A stretch of DNA of 64,000 nt, taken from positions 26,918-90,917 of the forward strand of contig JAFGIV010000022.1 in assembly GCA_016929435.1 (NCBI GenBank). The letters are read 5' to 3'. Origin of the DNA: Candidatus Uhrbacteria bacterium (GTDB lineage: Bacteria > Patescibacteriota > Patescibacteriia > SG8-24). This document shows, piece after piece, positions 2,881-49,112 of the stretch. The notes under the pieces were generated by a model that worked only from the letters and a program-made list of their open reading frames with translations, ran no database searches and was not told the origin of the DNA. Position 1 is the first letter of the stretch; every line of letters begins with the position of its first letter. Both the position numbers and the translations under genes were made by a program.

Positions 2881-2904
2881 GAGGGGCAGAAAATCCCGCA
2901 TCCG

Positions 2905-2948
2905 ATAAAAAAACGGCTTTGGTTATGGGCCCAAAGCCGTCTTTATTC
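2905..2948 (-). terminator. rho-independent terminator, bidirectional in shape, serving the 2974..3417 gene
   Basis: Perfect 10-bp stem acggctttgg/ccaaagccgt with an 8-nt loop. Flanked by an A7 run that becomes a T7 run after the hairpin on the minus-strand transcript. Confidence 0.6.
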
Positions 2949-2973
2949 AAGAAGAAGCCCTTCCTTCTGCCTA

Positions 2974-3417
2974 CTATTCCTCTTCTTCGTCCAATGCCTC
3001 TGCGGACGGTTTCCCGGTGCAGATACCGTCCAGACTGAAATCACATACCGTGTTCACAGGACAATCACGGTCTGACCAACAAAATATCGCGCAGAAGTAT
3101 GGGGCGTTTCCGTAGGCGTCGGATATTACACATTGTTCCTCCCCGGGAACGATGTCGGGGCAGTTTTTTTCGTCGGCAAAACCGTATCGAAAGCACTGGG
3201 TAGAACAAAACCCGTACTCGTCAGAGACGAGTTTTACACATTTCTGGCCACTTTGGTCACCTTCCCCGTTATCACAGTCCCAGTCTGAATTGCAGGACTG
3301 CCCCCACAACGGGGCCTTGTCTTCGTCATCCTCGCCATCCCCCTGACATGCCATCGTCAACACCACCGACATGACCATTACTGCCATTGTCATCATAATC
3401 AACCCCATTTTTCTCAT
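2974..3417 (-). CDS. cysteine-rich secreted lipoprotein, member of a paralogous family
   Basis: Start adjusted to MRKMGLIMMTMAVMVMSVVLTMAC (signal peptide plus lipobox). RBS GGAGGG lies 7 nt upstream. About 16 Cys in 110 mature residues, homologous to the central module of the 4870..5796 product (...YGFCS..C...DCP...IC.G). Confidence 0.7.
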   Translation of the reverse strand: MRKMGLIMMTMAVMVMSVVLTMACQGDGEDDEDKAPLWGQSCNSDWDCDNGEGDQSGQKCVKLVSDEYGFCSTQCFRYGFADEKNCPDIVPGEEQCVISDAYGNAPYFCAIFCWSDRDCPVNTVCDFSLDGICTGKPSAEALDEEEE

Positions 3418-3483
3418 TACACACCCTCCTGTTGGGTTTTGGATGCCGCCGTTCGGCGGACACCATTTGTTAAAGACACCGAA

Positions 3484-3512
3484 ATGTTGACATAAATTTG
3501 GCCATCTGTCAA
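3484..3512 (-). promoter_or_regulatory. promoter of 2974..3417 gene (TTGACA-N17-CAACAT)
   Basis: -35 TTGACA (complement of 3507-3512), 17-nt spacer and a weak -10. The same architecture and downstream leader motif recur in the paralog promoters at 4760-4788 and 5862-5890. Confidence 0.4.
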
Positions 3513-3542
3513 GAGCCAAGAAGGTCAAGCGACAACCCGAAC

Positions 3543-3578
3543 AAAAAAGCGGGCGACCGACGGAAAGTCGGCGCCCGC
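3543..3578 (-). terminator. rho-independent terminator of the M8 protease gene
   Basis: Stem gcgggcgaccgac/gtcggcgcccgc with loop ggaaa, preceded on the + strand by A6, which is a T-run after the hairpin on the minus-strand transcript. Confidence 0.55.
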
Positions 3579-3616
3579 AAAAACAGTCAGAAAGAACAAT
3601 GCGAAGCGGTCAGCGG

Positions 3617-4696
3617 TCAAATTGTCCTGAACGGCAGGCGCCTAATGTCCTGCGTCAGGTCAAATACCTTGCCGACTCCCCGCCTTGAGAAGGCGGTTGA
3701 GAGGCTGAAAACGTCGGCAGCGCCGTAGTTAACGGCGTAACCGATATCCTCCATTGATCCTATGGTGACTATACTCACCGGCTCAAACGCCGATCCGGAA
3801 GTGAATCCGGTCATCGCCTCGACTCCAAAAACCGACTCCCTCCAGTGGCCGTCCTGGGTTCCGGCACCGTAATTTCCGTTCTCCACCGGAACCTTATGGC
3901 CATCATAATACGCCCCACCTACCTGCTCGAAAGCCGCCAACGCCTCGGTCCCAACGAAATGGGTATCAGCCCCCGGGTTGTAAAGGGAGGGGTTTTTGAG
4001 AAGACCCATGGCTTCCCAAAAAATACCGAATCCCAAGGAGTGTCCCATCTCGTGGAAAGCCACATTAGACAGGACGCCCTCCGCCAGCATCTGATCGGCA
4101 TCACTGTCATCTATGACGATGATGCTGACTGCCGGCAGAAGACTCGACCCTCGCCAAACGCAGGGGCCGGAATACCCCAAAATGCCTCCTGCCCCGTCAA
4201 TCGGGGCGATCTGGACAATTATTACGATATCGTCGATATCGTAGTCAATCCGGGGATGGGGTAACCCGTCACAGTATCCGGCCTCTATCGGGCTGGCGGA
4301 AAAACTGGCGGTCGGCAAATCTCCCACGATGATTCGCTCCCAACGAGCGGATGCCTCGTCGAAGGCGGATTCCGCGGACCTGCTGACTTGAGACACGAAA
4401 ATGAAATCAATATCGTATTCCCCACCTATGTCCGTATCCGCATCCGTATCGGTATCCGTATCGGCGTCCGCATCGGCATCAGCGTCAGCATCGGCATCCG
4501 AGCCGCCTAGGTCAACGCAGAACCCGGAAGCGCAGGTCAAATCCCCATCACAAGCCCCGCCTTCCGTGCACTGGCAGCCTTCGCTGCCGATCGCACAACC
4601 CCCTTCTCCGCTGCCCTCATCCTCATCACAGGCCGAAAGGCCAATCACCATCAGAAACATCGCCACGGACAGAATCGTTACGTTCAGGTTTTGCAT
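3617..4696 (-). CDS. leishmanolysin-like (peptidase M8 family) zinc metalloprotease lipoprotein with an N-terminal Cys-rich EGF-like module and a (DA)n/(DT)n linker
   Basis: Start at MQNLNVTILSVAMFLMVIGLSAC (lipobox) with RBS GGAGGGG upstream. HEMGHSLGF matches the M8 HExxHxxGF motif, with a distal His/Met-turn candidate (...DGHWRESVFGVEAMTG). N-terminal module C-x5-C-x-C-x5-C-x5-C-x4-C, then DADADADADADTDTDTDADTD. Confidence 0.6.
   Translation of the reverse strand: MQNLNVTILSVAMFLMVIGLSACDEDEGSGEGGCAIGSEGCQCTEGGACDGDLTCASGFCVDLGGSDADADADADADADTDTDTDADTDIGGEYDIDFIFVSQVSRSAESAFDEASARWERIIVGDLPTASFSASPIEAGYCDGLPHPRIDYDIDDIVIIVQIAPIDGAGGILGYSGPCVWRGSSLLPAVSIIVIDDSDADQMLAEGVLSNVAFHEMGHSLGFGIFWEAMGLLKNPSLYNPGADTHFVGTEALAAFEQVGGAYYDGHKVPVENGNYGAGTQDGHWRESVFGVEAMTGFTSGSAFEPVSIVTIGSMEDIGYAVNYGAADVFSLSTAFSRRGVGKVFDLTQDIRRLPFRTI
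4431..4500. repeat. hexanucleotide microsatellite (GTATCC/GCATCG-like units) encoding the (DA)n/(DT)n linker
   Basis: tccgtatccgcatccgtatcggtatccgtatcggcgtccgcatcggcatcagcgtcagcatcggcatccg. An imperfect 6-nt periodicity lies inside the M8 protease gene. Confidence 0.8.
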
Positions 4697-4759
4697 TTCA
4701 CCCCTCCTATGGGTATGTGGGCGTTCCATTATGGAAACGCCATTTTCAAAGACGCCGAC

Positions 4760-4788
4760 ACCTTAGCGCTGTTTGCGGTTTTTGTCAA
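4760..4788 (-). promoter_or_regulatory. promoter of M8 protease gene (TTGACA-N17-TAAGGT)
   Basis: Minus strand TTGACA aaaaccgcaaacagcgc TAAGGT, followed by the conserved leader GTCTTTGAAAATGGCG plus a hairpin. Confidence 0.5.
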
Positions 4789-4796
4789 GAGATACC

Positions 4797-4838
4797 GAGA
4801 AACAAAAGGCGGATACAGGAGAAAATCCAGTATCCGCC
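4797..4838 (-). terminator. rho-independent terminator of the 4870..5796 gene
   Basis: Perfect 9-bp stem ggcggatac/gtatccgcc with a 13-nt loop, followed on the minus strand by TTTTGTTTCT. Confidence 0.55.
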
Positions 4839-4869
4839 GTAACCAAGCCCGAACCAAAGAACGTGATAA

Positions 4870-5796
4870 TCAGCAGTCTTCCTCTATATCGACAAAGAAA
4901 TCTTCTGTAACCCCCGCGCAAAAGGGATAGTCGCAGAAGCCGTCCCCTACCCAATCACACGGATCGTCGGCACCGCAGGTGCAGGCATCATATACCAAAT
5001 CTTCACATGCGCCGTCGCATCCGCCATCTTCCCCAATATGAGATCCAGCACAAATGCTTATGCCTTCACTCATCCAATAGTGGCAATAACCGTCCGGACA
5101 ATCGGAATCGTCTTCGCATGATATGGAACAGAAGTCTGTACCACCATCGATCAACTCAACGAAGCAACCTTCCGTGCCGCTCCCCATATCTGTGCAATAG
5201 GGATCGAGATCGCCAGAATTGCAGCACTCCTTGGAACAAAACCCGTAACCATCAATCAAGATGCATGTCTGCCCAGCCGTACAATCATCGTTGGATAGAC
5301 AATCGCCTCCCCAATCCCCAGATACCGGTTCCGCATCGCATACTCCGCTACCACAATCGTCACTGTCATCGAACGGACTGGAGACGGCCTGAGAACAGTC
5401 CTCATCGCAGTACCCGTCACCGACCCAGTTGCAGGGGTCATCGGAACCGCAGGTGCAGGCATCATATACCAAATCTTCACAGGCGCCGTAGCACTCGTCA
5501 GCGTCACCGTCAGCATCGGTGTCGGTGTCCGTATCGGTGTCAGTGTCCGTATCGGTGTCGGTATCCGTATCGGTGTCGGTGTCCGTATCGGTGTCAGACC
5601 CCGGATTTCCCGGATCAACGCAACGACCGGAAGCGCACACTAAGCCCGGATCGCATCCACCGCCCGGGGTGCACTCGCACCCCTTATTGCCGACCTGGCA
5701 ATCATCATCCATTTCATCCCCCCGGCAACCGGGTGCAAAAAGGGCCATTATTGCCGCTACCGCCACGAACAACATCCCAATCGATAGTTTCTTCAT
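4870..5796 (-). CDS. cysteine-rich secreted lipoprotein with (DT)14 linker and internally duplicated Cys modules
   Basis: Start at MKKLSIGMLFVAVAAIMALFAPGC (lipobox) with RBS AGGAGGGG. The N-terminal module (CQVGNKGCECTPGGGCDPGLVCASGRCVD) is paralogous to the M8 protein N-terminus. Then (DT)14 DADGDADE; the module YGACEDLVYDACTCGSDDPCNWVGDGYCD is repeated near the C-terminus, and the central module is paralogous to the 2974..3417 product. Confidence 0.7.
   Translation of the reverse strand: MKKLSIGMLFVAVAAIMALFAPGCRGDEMDDDCQVGNKGCECTPGGGCDPGLVCASGRCVDPGNPGSDTDTDTDTDTDTDTDTDTDTDTDTDTDADGDADECYGACEDLVYDACTCGSDDPCNWVGDGYCDEDCSQAVSSPFDDSDDCGSGVCDAEPVSGDWGGDCLSNDDCTAGQTCILIDGYGFCSKECCNSGDLDPYCTDMGSGTEGCFVELIDGGTDFCSISCEDDSDCPDGYCHYWMSEGISICAGSHIGEDGGCDGACEDLVYDACTCGADDPCDWVGDGFCDYPFCAGVTEDFFVDIEEDC
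5497..5598. repeat. hexanucleotide microsatellite (GTGTCG/GTATCC-like units) encoding (DT)n
   Basis: About 17 tandem 6-nt units (gtcggtgtccgtatcggtgtcagtgtccgtatcggtgtcggtatccgtatcggtgtcggtgtccgtatcggtgtc). Confidence 0.85.
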
Positions 5797-5861
5797 CCTT
5801 ACCCCTCCTATTGGGTATATGGGCCTCCCGTTCGGGAGCGCCATTTGTTAAAGACACCGAA

Positions 5862-5890
5862 ATTTTAATGCAAATCGCATATTTTGTCAA
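5862..5890 (-). promoter_or_regulatory. promoter of 4870..5796 gene (TTGACA-N17-TAAAAT)
   Basis: Minus strand TTGACA aaatatgcgatttgcat TAAAAT, followed by the conserved leader TTTCGGTGTCTTTAACAAATGGCG plus a hairpin. Confidence 0.55.
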
Positions 5891-5912
5891 GGGCCCATCC
5901 TGACACGGCCGA

Positions 5913-5951
5913 ACCAAAACAAAAACGGCTTTGAATTATGGCCAAAACCGT
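5913..5951 (-). terminator. rho-independent terminator of the small lipoprotein gene, paralogous to the terminator at 2905..2948
   Basis: Hairpin acggctttg-aattatggc-caaaaccgt, followed on the minus strand by TTTTTGTTTTGG. Near-identical in sequence to the 2905..2948 hairpin (gacggctttgg...ccaaagccgt). Confidence 0.5.
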
Positions 5952-5987
5952 CTTTCTTGAGAAGAAATCCCTCCCTCTCTCCCCTCT

Positions 5988-6161
5988 TTATCTTTCCTCT
6001 TTTTTTTCTTCCTCACCCGCATCAACTCCACCCATCGGAATGCTGACCAAGACCCGACCAGCATCCGACTTGTGTGCCGATGAGGATGAGGAAGTGGCGC
6101 AACCGCCAATTACCATAATCATCGTCAGTATCAACACCAACAAAACCCGAATTTCTCTCAT
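5988..6161 (-). CDS. small lipoprotein (57 aa), not in the ORF track because under 60 aa
   Basis: Minus-strand ATG (complement of 6159-6161) translates to MREIRVLLVLILTMIMVIGGCATSSSSSAHKSDAGRVLVSIPMGGVDAGEEEKKEER with stop TAA. RBS AAGGAG, its own promoter and its own terminator. Confidence 0.5.
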   Translation of the reverse strand: MREIRVLLVLILTMIMVIGGCATSSSSSAHKSDAGRVLVSIPMGGVDAGEEEKKEER

Positions 6162-6198
6162 CTATCTTCTCCTTTGTTTACCTGTTTTGATTGGACAA

Positions 6199-6227
6199 AC
6201 TATAGCGTTTTTAGGCGGTTTTGTCAA
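6199..6227 (-). promoter_or_regulatory. promoter of small lipoprotein gene (TTGACA-N17-TATAGT)
   Basis: Minus strand TTGACA aaaccgcctaaaaacgc TATAGT. This is the fourth promoter of the array with the same -35 and spacing. Confidence 0.55.
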
Positions 6228-6298
6228 GCCTGACAGGCAAAGACCGCCGGCTCTGGCCGACGGCCTTACCTGGCCAAATTCAACCGAAAGAAGTTGGG

Positions 6299-6892
6299 TT
6301 ATCCCTCCTTCTTCGCCCCCCCGGAATGGCTGATGTCGGACAGGAGAACGTTCTCCACGAAAATCCCCCGCGGATAGAATATCCTCTCCAGTTCGTTCTT
6401 GCATTCCACCTCCACGGCATCGCGCTTGGCGGAAACGACATCCTGATAGTCGTAGCGGGAGGCGATCATCCGCATCCGGGAACGGATGGTCGGCCGGACG
6501 ATCTTGGCCACGAAATCCTCCCCTATGTTCTGCCACATGGTCGGAACCTGGTTGATGTCCAAACGGAGCAGTACGGTCCCCTCAATGGATATCTGCTTGC
6601 CGTCCGCCGTCTGGGCGATGATCGGCAGGTCACCCAAGGCCTGCTCGTGTTCCGGGTTGAACTGCCGGCTGATGCCGTACTCCAGGGTCTGGGTATTGAA
6701 AAGCTTGGCCTTCTGCCAAAACGGTATCTTCAGGTGCAGTCCGGGGGTCAGAACCTTCTTCAGCACTCCCCGCCCCAGGTCATATACGCAGGCCACATAC
6801 CCCGGCGGAACGTGAACGAAAAGCCCCTTCAGGACATCCTCCACCACGAAGGAATACATTATCTTGTCCAGGCTGTCTCCGGATCGGGACAT
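6299..6892 (-). CDS. SPFH/Band 7 (prohibitin/HflK-like) domain protein
   Basis: VPPGYVACVYDLGRGVLKKVLTPGLHLKIPFWQKAKLFNTQT... resembles the SPFH domain beta-sheet core. Confidence 0.55.
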   Translation of the reverse strand: MSRSGDSLDKIMYSFVVEDVLKGLFVHVPPGYVACVYDLGRGVLKKVLTPGLHLKIPFWQKAKLFNTQTLEYGISRQFNPEHEQALGDLPIIAQTADGKQISIEGTVLLRLDINQVPTMWQNIGEDFVAKIVRPTIRSRMRMIASRYDYQDVVSAKRDAVEVECKNELERIFYPRGIFVENVLLSDISHSGGAKKEG

Positions 6893-9694: not shown

Positions 9695-10081
9695 ATGTCT
9701 ATATCCATAAAAAATATTTTTACCGCCCATAACAATCGAAGCGCTTCTTTTCGGAAAAAAGCTCTTGGTTATTTTCTTGTCTTTCTGGGTGCGTTTCCAG
9801 CGGTTGCATTTGCTTTAGCCTTCGTATTTTGTTTGTTCTTTCCGAATAATCACCTGATGAGGACATACATCATGGTCGATTTTGCTCTTGTCGAAGTCGT
9901 TGGCCCTATGGCATACGTGTTGCTATTGCTGTTGGCTTTGGCTGTGTTTTCTGCGCCGTTTTTCCTGTTGGTCTATATTGGCTTTCTTCTTGTTGGTTCG
10001 AAGAAAAAGAAACCGTCGGGCCAAGCCGTGCTGTTCGCGGTGTTTGCCTATTTTATCTGCTTTTCCGTTTTTTTTTTCTGA
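9695..10081 (+). CDS. small polytopic membrane protein (3-4 TM), AT-rich islet
   Basis: Hydrophobic segments; stop TGA overlaps the next ATG (TGATG), so the two are translationally coupled. Confidence 0.5.
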   Translation: MSISIKNIFTAHNNRSASFRKKALGYFLVFLGAFPAVAFALAFVFCLFFPNNHLMRTYIMVDFALVEVVGPMAYVLLLLLALAVFSAPFFLLVYIGFLLVGSKKKKPSGQAVLFAVFAYFICFSVFFF

Positions 10082-10823
10082 TGACTGAGAATCTGAATAC
10101 GAAATTTGACAGGAAAGTCTCTGGAATGAAAAGTCTTAATACTGGAATCGGGCATCCTATCTTGCCCGAATTTGATGTCATTAACATTTCCAAGTATGTG
10201 AAGTACGATGACATTGTCATTTATCAGGGAGATAGCTACGGGTACAAGTATACGGGTGATGCCTATAGCCAGATCGCCTTGGACCTTGACGTTGAAGGTC
10301 GTACTCTGTTTGTCAGGCGCTCTGAGATGGAGACCTATGTCGTACTCTGTTTGTCAGGCGCTCTGAGATGGAGACCTATTACGATGTCGAAATAGGTCAT
10401 GTGAAGAACAGGTATCCTTTATACCCGGCCGGCACCAAGAAACTGACCATCGAAATCACCGTTCCTGACCTTGACCGCATCATTGTTGAGGGTGGACATG
10501 TCAGCCTAGAGGGTTTGGAAGTGAATGACCTGCGGATTGACCTAAATAAGCGGTTCGTTGAGCTGAAAGGGGATTTGGTGGTGAGAGACGGTTTTGTCCT
10601 GAATGCTAAAGGGGGAGTGGTAGATTTGGAGGGTTCCGCAAAAAACCTAGAAATAAATTCCGGGGACTGTTGGATTGATATGGAGAATTTTACGGCTGAG
10701 ACCGCCTCAATAAACGCCGTTAACACCAGTCGTTTGAACGTTTACGTAACGGAAAACATGGAGGTCATTTCCGGGGTTAATTCTGGGATAGTCAAACATT
10801 TCGATTTCCATCAGGAAGAGTAA
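10081..10823 (+). pseudogene. putative-adhesin/beta-helix-like (DUF2807/DUF4097-like) gene split into two ORFs (10081..10395 and 10368..10823) by a frameshifting 41-bp tandem duplication
   Basis: Removing one 41-bp copy joins ...GRTLFVRRSEMETY to YDVEIGHVKNRYPLY... in frame, giving a single 233-aa protein. Confidence 0.6.
10298..10379 (+). repeat. perfect tandem duplication, 2 x 41 bp (gtcgtactctgtttgtcaggcgctctgagatggagacctat)
   Basis: Copy 10298-10338 is identical to copy 10339-10379. 41 is not a multiple of 3, so the duplication causes a frameshift. Confidence 0.95.
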
Positions 10824-10953: not shown

Positions 10954-11118
10954 TGTGCTGGGTTATTTTAATTGCGAAGGGGGGGTGCTTTATGGTATTG
11001 TGCAAATAACATATTTCAATCTAGAAAATAATTTTCGCTTCGTTAGTGGCGGTGCTTTATATCGTTATTCGAAGCTATGTCGAGGGAATTATTAATAATA
11101 TACTTAACCATTGCAAAT

Positions 11119-11724
11119 ATGAAAAATAATATTTTTATTAGAGTGATGTTGGCCACAATGGGCCTCTTTTCTCTATCTTTGTTCTTTTTGGTCTCCAATG
11201 TATACGCATATGTAGCAAGTGGATACACCCGCCCTTCAGGAAACGTAAGTTTTTACTTGCATGGCGCACTGGTGAATGTGGGGTGGCAGGGAGCGATAGA
11301 CAACGCTCGTAGCGAATGGAACGGGGCAGGATCTTCCTTTACGTTCTCTCAAAGCGGTACCGCTACAAGAAGCCCGAGCTTGGTTCAAAGCAGCACGACT
11401 GATGGGTATAACGACATCGGAGCACTTTCGTTGGACCTCAGTTATGTTGGATTTACATCTTCTGTTGCTAGTGGAACATCGATCATTGAAACGGACACAG
11501 CTTATAACTTGGAGAAGTCCTTTGATGTAAATCCGAATATTTATCAGTATGATGTTGAGAGTGTTGCTGTACATGAATTGGGCCACTGGTTACATTTGGA
11601 CGAAACACAGTCGTGGCGATGCTTTGCGTCTCCGCCAAGTATGTGCGGATCAGTTTCTATGGGGAGCACATATATGCGTTCTATAGAATCCGACGACATT
11701 AACGGCATTCAATATATCTATTAA
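11119..11724 (+). CDS. secreted metzincin-like zinc metalloprotease (snapalysin M7 / matrixin M10-like)
   Basis: Signal peptide MKNNIFIRVMLATMGLFSLSLFFLVSNVYA. Zinc motif VAVHELGHWLHLDE, a Cys pair, Met-turn candidate STYM and C-terminal DDINGIQYIY (matrixin DDIxGIQxLY signature). Confidence 0.6.
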   Translation: MKNNIFIRVMLATMGLFSLSLFFLVSNVYAYVASGYTRPSGNVSFYLHGALVNVGWQGAIDNARSEWNGAGSSFTFSQSGTATRSPSLVQSSTTDGYNDIGALSLDLSYVGFTSSVASGTSIIETDTAYNLEKSFDVNPNIYQYDVESVAVHELGHWLHLDETQSWRCFASPPSMCGSVSMGSTYMRSIESDDINGIQYIY

Positions 11725-24691: not shown

Positions 24692-24825
24692 AACGAATCG
24701 GTAAAATTACTGGGATAGATTACCATAACGATAACCGGTTTACAAACCGGGCGGGGCCCCAAGAAACCGGTTTCGGCCGCCATCCGCCCCGGAAAGGAGG
24801 GGCGGGAACGGTACCCGGCGGCAAC

Positions 24826-48422: not shown

Positions 48423-49112
48423 ATGCGAAAGGCCCCAATATTCCCCATCCTGACCGTCATGTTGGCCGTGGCCGTACTGGCCATCCACTACCTTTCGGTT
48501 CGGATGATCGATACGAAAGGTTCCGAAACGAATCCGGATGTCGGTTCCCCTACTCCGCTGGAGATGCCGACGATCGTCTTCGGCAACCCGATGGTCGGAA
48601 ACAACTCCGCCAGGGTGACGATCGTGGAATTCAGCGATTACCTCTGCGGACCGTGCGGATCCCTGGACCAGACCCTAACACGGCTGGCCGGCGAGTATCC
48701 GAACGACGTCCGGTTGGTCTGGAAGGATTTCCCGAACGAGAAGAGCCATCCCGGATCGGTTGAGGCGGCCATGGCCGCCCGCTGTGCCGCCGATCAGGGG
48801 GCCTTTTGGGAATATCACCGGGCGATCTTCAGCGACCAGACCGGCCTGAATACGGACGGTTACGTCCAGATCGCCGATTCCCTTGGCCTGGACACCGAAA
48901 AGTTCCGGAACTGCCAGGAAAACCGGCTGTCCGAACCGCTGGTCAGGCGGGACCTGGAGGAAGCCCTCCGGCTTCGCCTTGATGCCACCCCCTACATCTT
49001 CGTGAACGACCGGAGACTCTCCGGCGCCCTGAGCTACGAGATACTGAAGAGCATCGTGGACGGGGAGATCAGCGAATCGCTGCGGACCGAAAACGCCCCC
49101 TCCGGCCTATGA
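48423..49112 (+). CDS. DsbA-like thiol:disulfide oxidoreductase (thioredoxin fold)
   Basis: N-terminal TM helix plus a CGPC active site. Confidence 0.65.
   Translation: MRKAPIFPILTVMLAVAVLAIHYLSVRMIDTKGSETNPDVGSPTPLEMPTIVFGNPMVGNNSARVTIVEFSDYLCGPCGSLDQTLTRLAGEYPNDVRLVWKDFPNEKSHPGSVEAAMAARCAADQGAFWEYHRAIFSDQTGLNTDGYVQIADSLGLDTEKFRNCQENRLSEPLVRRDLEEALRLRLDATPYIFVNDRRLSGALSYEILKSIVDGEISESLRTENAPSGL

Follow-up and report, generated by a model that had tools for sequence, protein, structure and literature searches.

A conserved 5′ leader with a compensatory hairpin is shared by three paralogous promoters in a Candidatus Uhrbacteria genome

Introduction

The leaders of E. coli ompA, B. subtilis aprE and B. 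thuringiensis cry3A (STAB-SD) act as stabiliser modules or modules that present the Shine-Dalgarno sequence (SD). Comparative genomics has also found orphan cis-regulatory 5′-UTR RNA motifs, of the Rfam type 'Cis-reg; leader', for which example candidates are given in PMC5737381 and PMC1950547. In Mycoplasma agalactiae and M. bovis, the vpma/vsp genes have a conserved 72-nt 5′ UTR, which is the target of the Xer1 recombinase (PMC2268961). In Borrelia burgdorferi, the operator of the erp genes (ospE/F, 'upstream homology box') comprises about 145 bp of DNA on the 5′ side of the start site and is bound by BpaB, BpuR and EbfC (PMC9112904).

Gene regulation in the CPR (Patescibacteria) is almost unexplored, and few regulators are recognisable in these genomes. 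Here we describe, in a 64-kb stretch of DNA (64,000 nucleotides, hereafter the window) of such a bacterium, which is uncultured and ultrasmall, three adjacent surface-protein genes, A, B and C, that carry the same mRNA leader of about 65 bases. The leader opens with a 5′ box of 18 nt, continues with a hairpin and ends in a 3′ box that contains the SD.

The leader resembles the orphan 5′-UTR motifs in being structured, in its position between promoter and start codon, in its conserved single-stranded boxes, compensatory helix and SD in the 3′ part, and in serving one functional class of genes. It differs from them in coming from one genome and in having no Rfam match, whereas orphan motifs are normally defined from many species. 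Like the ompA, aprE and cry3A STAB-SD leaders, with which we compared general features and not sequences, it combines a strong SD with a stable hairpin close to the 5′ end of an mRNA for an envelope protein; unlike them, it has a predicted conserved single-stranded tail of 12-14 nt ahead of the hairpin. With vpma/vsp it shares paralogous surface-lipoprotein genes of divergent coding sequence and a common segment of ~70 nt immediately before the start codon (PMC2268961). Mycoplasma, however, has one promoter, a nearby xer1 gene, both orientations and no covarying hairpin, and the array described here has none of the first three. As in erp, a surface-lipoprotein family has highly conserved upstream DNA, which in erp means coordinated control (PMC9112904), but the conserved part lies here downstream of the -10 element and has a compensatory helix as its core.

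Results

An array of secreted-protein genes

Four short-spaced genes (D, C, B and A), all on the minus strand, form an array between a Band_7/SPFH gene (6299-6892) and hrcA (2077-2808):

Gene A, 2974-3417, minus strand: 147 aa, Cys-rich, secreted or lipoprotein-like, without a Pfam domain
Gene B, 3617-4696, minus strand: lipoprotein of 359 aa; N-terminal Cys-rich module, then an acidic (DA/DT)n linker and an M8 peptidase domain of leishmanolysin-like type
Gene C, 4870-5796, minus strand: 308 aa, Cys-rich
Gene D, 5988-6161, minus strand: 57 aa

Each of the four proteins starts with a signal peptide ending in cysteine; on our reading of the sequences, B and D have a canonical lipobox and A and C a looser one. 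The peptidase domain of gene B was recognised as Pfam PF01457 (E = 1.5e-9). The N-terminal module of gene C is common to gene B (51% amino-acid identity) and its central module to gene A (39%). The cluster mate of gene A at 90% identity is NCBI MBN1585550.1, called 7 residues shorter, and the 90%-identity clusters held no variants. Sequence reading and a promoter/terminator scan gave each of the four genes its own promoter and its own terminator, a hairpin followed by a T-run. Genes A, B and C are separate cassettes, each with its promoter, leader, coding sequence and terminator. The terminator scan flagged hairpins downstream of genes B and D, and flagged the terminator hairpin of gene A as a plus-strand reading.

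The setting invites comparison with Mycoplasma vpma/vsp, in which the 5′ UTR is cut by Xer1, and the leader might by this analogy be a site-specific recombination site for shuffling or switching surface-lipoprotein genes. The analogy is a broad one, consisting of a reduced genome, a variable lipoprotein cluster and a conserved stretch of ~65-70 nt directly upstream of each start codon. It breaks down in the particulars: no integrase or recombinase domain was present among the 47 ORFs scanned (the large ORFs of the 64-kb window); the four genes all point one way, so that recombination would delete rather than invert; each gene has a promoter of its own (four, vs one in the vpma locus); and the copies differ at many positions, vs at most 5 of 72 between vpma sites (PMC2268961). 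We regard this reading as already largely refuted, with a very small probability left to it.

Promoters, boxes and the predicted transcript start

Genes A, B and C have sigma-70-like promoters, read from the sequence (A and B) or returned by the promoter scan (C), and the leader begins directly after each:

Promoter A, 3484..3512, minus strand: -35 TTGACA (3512-3507), 17-nt spacer that is not conserved, -10 CAACAT (3489-3484)
Promoter B, 4760..4788, minus strand: -35 TTGACA (4788-4783), 17-nt spacer, -10 TAAGGT (4765-4760)
Promoter C, 5862..5890, minus strand: -35 TTGACA (5890-5885), 17-nt spacer, -10 TAAAAT (5867-5862); 11 of 12 matches

The leader had been brought to attention by an earlier note, and the sequences quoted there were all found on the minus strand where it had placed them. 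The 3′ consensus that it proposed fits copies C and B, but copy A deviates from it (CCAAAACCCAACAGGAGGGTGT). The boxes are as follows:

Leader A 5′ box, 3466..3483, minus strand: TTCGGTGTCTTTAACAAA; spans the predicted start site
Leader A 3′ box, 3418..3439, minus strand: AAACCCAACAGGAGGGTGTGTA, with SD AGGAGGG (3430-3424); start codon 3417-3415
Leader B 5′ box, 4743..4759, minus strand: GTCGGCGTCTTTGAAAA; 1-nt deletion relative to A and C
Leader B 3′ box, 4697..4717, minus strand: CATACCCATAGGAGGGGTGAA, with SD 4708-4701; start codon 4696-4694
Leader C 5′ box, 5844..5861, minus strand: TTCGGTGTCTTTAACAAA
Leader C 3′ box, 5797..5819, minus strand: TATACCCAATAGGAGGGGTAAGG, with SD 5809-5802; start codon 5796-5794

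The 5′ box of leader A is identical to that of copy C at 18 of 18 positions and to that of copy B at 14 of 18, and the box pattern GTCTTT-N(1-4)-AAATGG occurs three times in the 64-kb window, vs 0.03 occurrences expected. On the other side of the hairpin, whose helix we call P1, runs the conserved single strand (A/U)AUACCCA(A)(U/C)AGGAGGG, with the ribosome-binding site 5-7 nt ahead of the AUG. Folding predicts the SD to be mostly unpaired and in a loop: a weak hairpin P2 (ACCC/GGGU) is possible in the 3′ box and would display the GGAG of the SD, this core being predicted unpaired in the P2 loop in three of three leaders. P2 hardly varies among the copies, which makes it uninformative, and it is neither supported nor refuted.

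By standard sigma-70 geometry, the predicted +1 is one G of TCGG(Y)G, about 5-7 nt past the -10, which in leader A would fall at about G3479-G3477, inside the 5′ box. The box would then occupy about -6 to +14, its first bases (TTCGG) probably being promoter DNA and not RNA. The predicted RNA would have its 5′ end near G(U/C)GUCUUU, with ~12-14 conserved single-stranded bases (G[U/C]GUCUUUAACAAA) ahead of P1. As sigma-70-type promoters put the predicted +1 upstream of P1, the hairpin lies inside the predicted transcript. The covariation in the leader had earlier been taken as the sign of an RNA structure or of an operator; for the hairpin itself the predicted start upstream of it favours RNA structure, but for the 5′ box an operator stays the main rival.

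An operator would mean that the 5′ box, TCGGYGTCTTT..AAATGG, is a DNA site at about -6 to +14 to which a transcription factor binds, hindering or assisting RNA polymerase at the three promoters, while the hairpin is a separate, generic feature of the mRNA. We consider this unlikely, though deserving serious weight. The box does overlap the predicted start, with its first bases probably untranscribed, and some of the conservation in its first part, at or upstream of that start, may reflect promoter or operator function. The -35 region is conserved past the hexamer (CTCTTGACA), and a direct-repeat site is conceivable, since GGTGTC occurs again 16 nt downstream in A, and GGCGTC recurs as GGCGTT 15 nt downstream in B. 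That repeat is, however, degenerate in copy C (3 of 6 positions), and its spacing of 15-16 nt fits no usual half-site phasing. There is no convincing dyad in the box, only the quasi-dyad TTT-N3-AAA, which becomes TTT-N2-AAA in copy B through the 1-nt deletion inside the box; a deletion in the middle of the 5′ box is likelier to be tolerated by a single-strand RNA site than by a DNA operator with two half-sites. The compensatory helix and the conserved 3′ box would be left unexplained. Moreover, no array-specific regulator was found for an operator to bind. Two candidates had been put forward, and neither is supported: relatives that lack the array have the gene for the ArsR-like protein in the same place, beside yidC and the Band_7 gene, so that this gene is not tied to the array, and the response regulator consists of a receiver domain only, without a DNA-binding domain.

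The GG(Y)GTC that starts the 5′ box is repeated at the 5′ foot of P1 (A GGTGTC/GGTGTC, B GGCGTC/GGCGTT, C GGTGTC/GGCGCT; 3440-3483, 4718-4759 and 5820-5861), and in A, as in B, the two occurrences agree in their T/C state. Judged from these sequences, the repeat may offer the 3′ strand of P1 an alternative partner, or it may be a feature of the DNA. On the plus strand (3440-3475 in A, and the corresponding stretches of B and C), TTTGTTAAAG, or TTTTCAAAG in copy B, comes immediately after P1 and gives it the look of a terminator. No gene on the plus strand reads into P1, and the resemblance probably just reflects the A-richness of the 5′ box.

Compensatory changes in helix P1

The apical stems of 5 bp reported earlier (CCGCC/GGCGG in A, CTCCC/GGGAG in C and TTCCA/TGGAA in B) are as they had been described. 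The pairing is indeed kept among the copies, but 'short hairpin' understates its size: it is really a helix of 10 bp with two bulges at fixed positions:

Leader A helix P1, 3440..3465, minus strand: UGGUG-U-CCGCC-GAAC-GGCGG-CA-U-CCA; 10 bp, two bulges; -13.7 kcal/mol
Leader B helix P1, 4718..4742, minus strand: UGGCG-U-UUCCA-UAA-UGGAA-CG-C-CCA; 10 bp, both bulges placed as in A; -11.2 kcal/mol
Leader C helix P1, 5820..5843, minus strand: UGGC-G-CUCCC-GAAC-GGGAG-GC-C-CA; 9 bp, register shifted by one, same bulge layout; -14.0 kcal/mol

In all three copies a segment of 3 bp is separated by a one-base bulge on the 3′ side from one of 2 bp, and this by a one-base bulge on the 5′ side from one of 5 bp, which is capped by a loop of 3-4 nt. 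MAFFT misaligned the stems, and the covariance model was therefore built from leader A alone with its predicted structure, to which Infernal aligned B and C; the structural alignment is in this sense fitted to one helix, that of copy A, and the one-base register shift is needed to accommodate copy C. When the leaders were aligned in this way and tested, the covariation proved stronger than had been claimed: in seven of ten pairs both partners had changed, in no pair had just one, and all 29 scorable cells of the three copies were Watson-Crick, although with n = 3 tandem paralogues of one genome, linked by ancestry, the statistics of covariation are weak and a test of the R-scape type is low in power. 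In a control in which the 3′ partners were slid by 1-3 columns, 40-50% of cells were paired and 0-1 double changes were seen. When random substitution was simulated at the observed density, all pairs were kept with P ~1e-4 for A to B, and likewise for A to C. A calculation by hand for the gap-free apical stem of 5 bp only gave P values near 0.01 and 0.004. There is no G-U among the 29 pairs, and a palindrome at the DNA level would look alike; the bulges at the same two positions in all copies argue against simple palindrome homogenisation. The folding z-scores of the whole leaders were unremarkable (-0.6 to -2.0).

A stable helix near the predicted 5′ end (-11 to -14 kcal/mol) could also belong to a constitutive expression module that has no regulator, in which P1 shields the mRNA from 5′-end-dependent decay and the 3′ box is an optimised context of the ribosome-binding site for highly expressed envelope proteins. 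Such a module would agree with the strong SD (AGGAGGG/G), which is predicted to be accessible, and with the strong promoter and own terminator of each cassette. A stabiliser, however, requires a shape and not 18 invariant single-stranded bases, and the predicted tail of 12-14 nt before P1 exceeds that of known protective 5′ hairpins. Gene D and all other genes of the window, moreover, do without the leader. We judge this explanation rather improbable.

Selection on the leader since an old divergence

The aligned domains of A, B and C are 39-51% identical in protein sequence, and their third codon positions are 28-40% identical. The 17-nt spacers between -35 and -10 are 29-47% identical, that of A sharing 35% with C (11 of 17 positions different) and 29% with B (12 of 17). 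Judged by these identities, A, B and C are old paralogues. In 20-nt windows, by contrast, the leader boxes are 75-90% identical, vs an aligner background of ~50% for spacers and coding regions. Between A and C there are no differences among the 18 positions of the 5′ box, vs 11 of 17 in the adjacent spacer (Fisher p = 3e-5), and P1 differs at 9 of 27 alignment columns with every pair kept. Since the boxes are near-invariant and the shape of P1 is kept despite the old divergence, we infer purifying selection on the two boxes and on that shape, and the selection on the leader that had been proposed is upheld in its conserved flanks, by the contrast of A/C box and spacer and by the third codon positions.

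It is conceivable that the leaders have no selected function and are duplication remnants held similar by gene conversion, with the perfect stems produced by intrastrand template switching (quasi-palindrome correction). The copies all lie in one 3.5-kb stretch of tandem paralogues, the 29 pairs are Watson-Crick throughout and include no G-U, and the paralogous terminators of D and A, described below, speak for recombination at the level of cassettes. A conversion tract would, however, homogenise P1 too, which does not agree with the absence of differences in the A/C box next to the nine in P1; template switching would erase the two bulges, which persist at fixed positions; and the adjacent spacer and coding sequence are at background identity. 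This is, in our estimation, very unlikely.

The terminators and 3′ ends of genes D (5912-5960) and A (2906-2945) are mutually paralogous on the minus strand (…CTTCTTC..AA.AAAGACGG.TTTGG…CCAAAGCCGTTTTT), and both proteins have Glu-rich tails at the C-terminal end. Whole cassette ends, beyond the leaders alone, seem to have been duplicated or exchanged.

Search for further copies

Covariance models run on the window with filters off found only the three leaders, at 72-90 bits with model R1 and 75-94 bits with R3, the three-sequence model; the next best matches scored 10-13 bits. One of these, at 24736-24810 (12.7 bits, E = 0.36), does not precede a gene and is without the boxes. The fourth promoter of the array (6199-6227), for which a looser version of the leader had been suspected, has only the -35 region and the SD in common with the others and matched neither model (E ≤ 10 for R1, E ≤ 5 for R3).

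At gathering thresholds, Rfam 15 returned two tRNAs only from the whole window. With E ≤ 10, the 4227 Rfam models gave sub-threshold chance matches only in the region 2900-6400 and in the isolated leaders, for example ROSE_2 with 16 bits vs a threshold of 65.

We also scanned public collections with the exact pattern GTCTTTN{1,3}AAATGGYGN{24,36}AGGAGGG. There were 16 matches in 185,579 GTDB species genomes and 21 in JGI/ENA metagenomes, about the chance number as estimated by hand, the source contig itself being absent from the collections scanned; the pattern demanded about 20 exact bases in both of these large scans and would miss diverged homologues. All of these matches were singletons without a hairpin, for example in tRNA genes or in an unrelated upstream region of Lachnospiraceae. 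In viral contigs, two looser patterns gave 82 chance matches and 0 matches, and the covariance model found nothing real among the 82.

The closest homologues are distant, being at most 45% identical for gene B, and at most 40% over 28% of the query for gene C. Those of B and C that have a source name are from 'Deltaproteobacteria' MAGs. The leader is absent from the loci of B/C homologues L039, L040, L043 and L045. In two family-level relatives, L041 and L042 (HrcA 62-64% identical), the order is ArsR - YidC - Band_7 - X - HrcA - GrpE, on to DnaK in the longer locus. The place of the array (window 2974-6161) is there taken by X (8286-9791 in L041, 8013-9519 in L042), a HisKA histidine kinase and a gene of 93 aa. 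A third relative, L129 (83% identity), has an unrelated gene upstream of hrcA. None of L041, L042 and L129 has the leader. The gene order of these loci points to a lineage-specific replacement or insertion of the array between the Band_7 gene and hrcA. By these searches, the array is lineage-specific and the leader at present an orphan. The regulon of wider reach that had been suggested thus did not materialise: no copy was found beyond the three tandem paralogues in the 64-kb window, in related genomes or in the public genome, metagenome and viral scans.

Six of the chance matches (L005, L010-L013 and L033, Lachnospiraceae/gut metagenome) have a common conserved upstream region of their own, …ATTGGTCTTTTGAAATGG.G…GGTGTG.TA.AAT…AGGAGGGATA.AATGCC.GAAC, which appears to be the conserved promoter and leader of one gut Lachnospiraceae gene.

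Comparison with known regulatory classes

An RNA thermometer (ROSE/fourU) was rejected: the GGAG core is predicted unpaired in three of three leaders and ROSE_2 is far below threshold. Sequestering of the SD by the 5′ UCUUU is too weak on inspection of the sequence (5 bp with GGAGG, mostly G-U, across a loop of ~45 nt). An intrinsic terminator or attenuator would need a U-run after P1, which is followed instead by AAAACCC, UAUACCC or CAUACCC, and the terminator scan placed no site at the leaders. With respect to riboswitches, conserved single strands around a variable helix are compatible with one; the loop varies (GAAC, GAAC, UAA), we found no pseudoknot partner or known class, and the pattern scans gave no homologue from any other genome. 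A pseudoknot of loop and tail was dismissed for want of complementary sequence. Similarity to sites of the CsrA type, as generally described with GGA in a loop, exists in that P2 would show GGAG in its loop; a second GGA, however, has no consistent position, and there is no CsrA among the ORFs of the window that were scanned.

The ATG in AAATGG opens a +1-frame ORF in A, an ORF of four codons in B and an in-frame extension in C. As these are three different frames and lengths, a conserved leader peptide (uORF) is excluded. Three further readings were likewise discarded: an ECF-sigma promoter with GTCT as its -10 lacks a conserved AAC-type -35 at the right spacing, a sigma-dependent pause or -10-like element in the box lacks the key positions A2 and T6 in A and C, and the integron attC core lacks the RYYYAAC motif.

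Discussion

The leader is a real, selected and structured element, novel as a motif and familiar in kind, and it is confined to three paralogues of one CPR genome. As the evidence comes from one genome only, it is for now a candidate and not a new RNA class. Our best explanation, to which we give even weight for and against, is that it is a lineage-specific cis-acting 5′-UTR RNA element of three anciently diverged paralogues, which would control translation or the lifetime of the mRNA. This reading accounts for every part of the leader, that is, for both boxes, the helix, the SD and the position. The data show how the leader is conserved, that its helix is compensatory, that promoters and terminators are independent and that no known family matches. 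The start site, the action as RNA, the existence of a trans factor and the direction of control are what we infer from these features.

In a mechanism of this kind, P1 would be a scaffold of conserved shape and free sequence, at whose base the two conserved single strands are joined beside the SD. A sequence-specific trans-acting partner, perhaps a protein or a small RNA, possibly even a small ligand, would read this junction and set the access of ribosomes and/or the lifetime of the mRNA, jointly for all three genes. Because the unbound leader is predicted to leave the SD accessible, we lean, as a guess, to a default-on state that the bound partner represses.

A bolder version, which we put forward as a long shot, would make the leader a new class of sensor RNA in a CPR lineage, in which the P1-base junction binds a dedicated protein or small molecule and thereby switches the translation of horizontally acquired disulfide-rich surface proteins and of a leishmanolysin-like protease used in the interaction with host cells. 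A conserved, structured leader common to three separately transcribed surface-protein genes would give a concrete and testable handle on how envelope or host-interaction proteins are coordinated in such cells. The promoter-plus-UTR module, being compact and natural, could in addition serve as a genetic tool.

Several observations concern the array proteins themselves. The N-terminal ~75 aa of genes B and C (window about 4470-4696 and 5570-5796) are a Cys-rich module of the pattern C.[IV]G..GC.CT.GG.CD.[GD]L.C.S..CVD, after which come (D[TA])n linkers, and module and linkers of this type also occur in proteins P0020, P0021, P0023, P0024 and P0034 of unrelated MAGs, including GCA_028278265.1. 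This distribution suggests that the module is widely exchanged among secreted proteins and may have been acquired horizontally by this CPR genome. Gene C contains an internal duplication of a Cys-rich domain of ~50 aa (aa ~97-148 and ~255-308; window about 4870-5035 and 5350-5510; motif ACEDLVYDACTCG.DDPC.WVGDG.CD). Its two copies are 62% identical in protein sequence and 52% at third codon positions, and are by this measure younger than the split of A, B and C.

The window holds other likely envelope or secreted genes, for an M10 matrixin-like peptidase (11077-11724, plus strand), a DUF2807 adhesin-head protein (10368-10823, plus strand) and a DsbA-like thioredoxin (48423-49112, plus strand), and the leader is absent from all three. 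The thioredoxin fits the disulfide-rich array proteins. Next to the array, the hrcA-grpE-dnaK operon has the promoter TTGACA-17-CATAAT (2880-2852, minus strand) and, after it at about 2840-2814, a CIRCE inverted repeat of textbook form, TTAGCAGTCTCCTGTCAGGAGTGCTAA. CIRCE is also found upstream of hrcA in the relatives L041 (about 9963-9989) and L129 (about 437-463).
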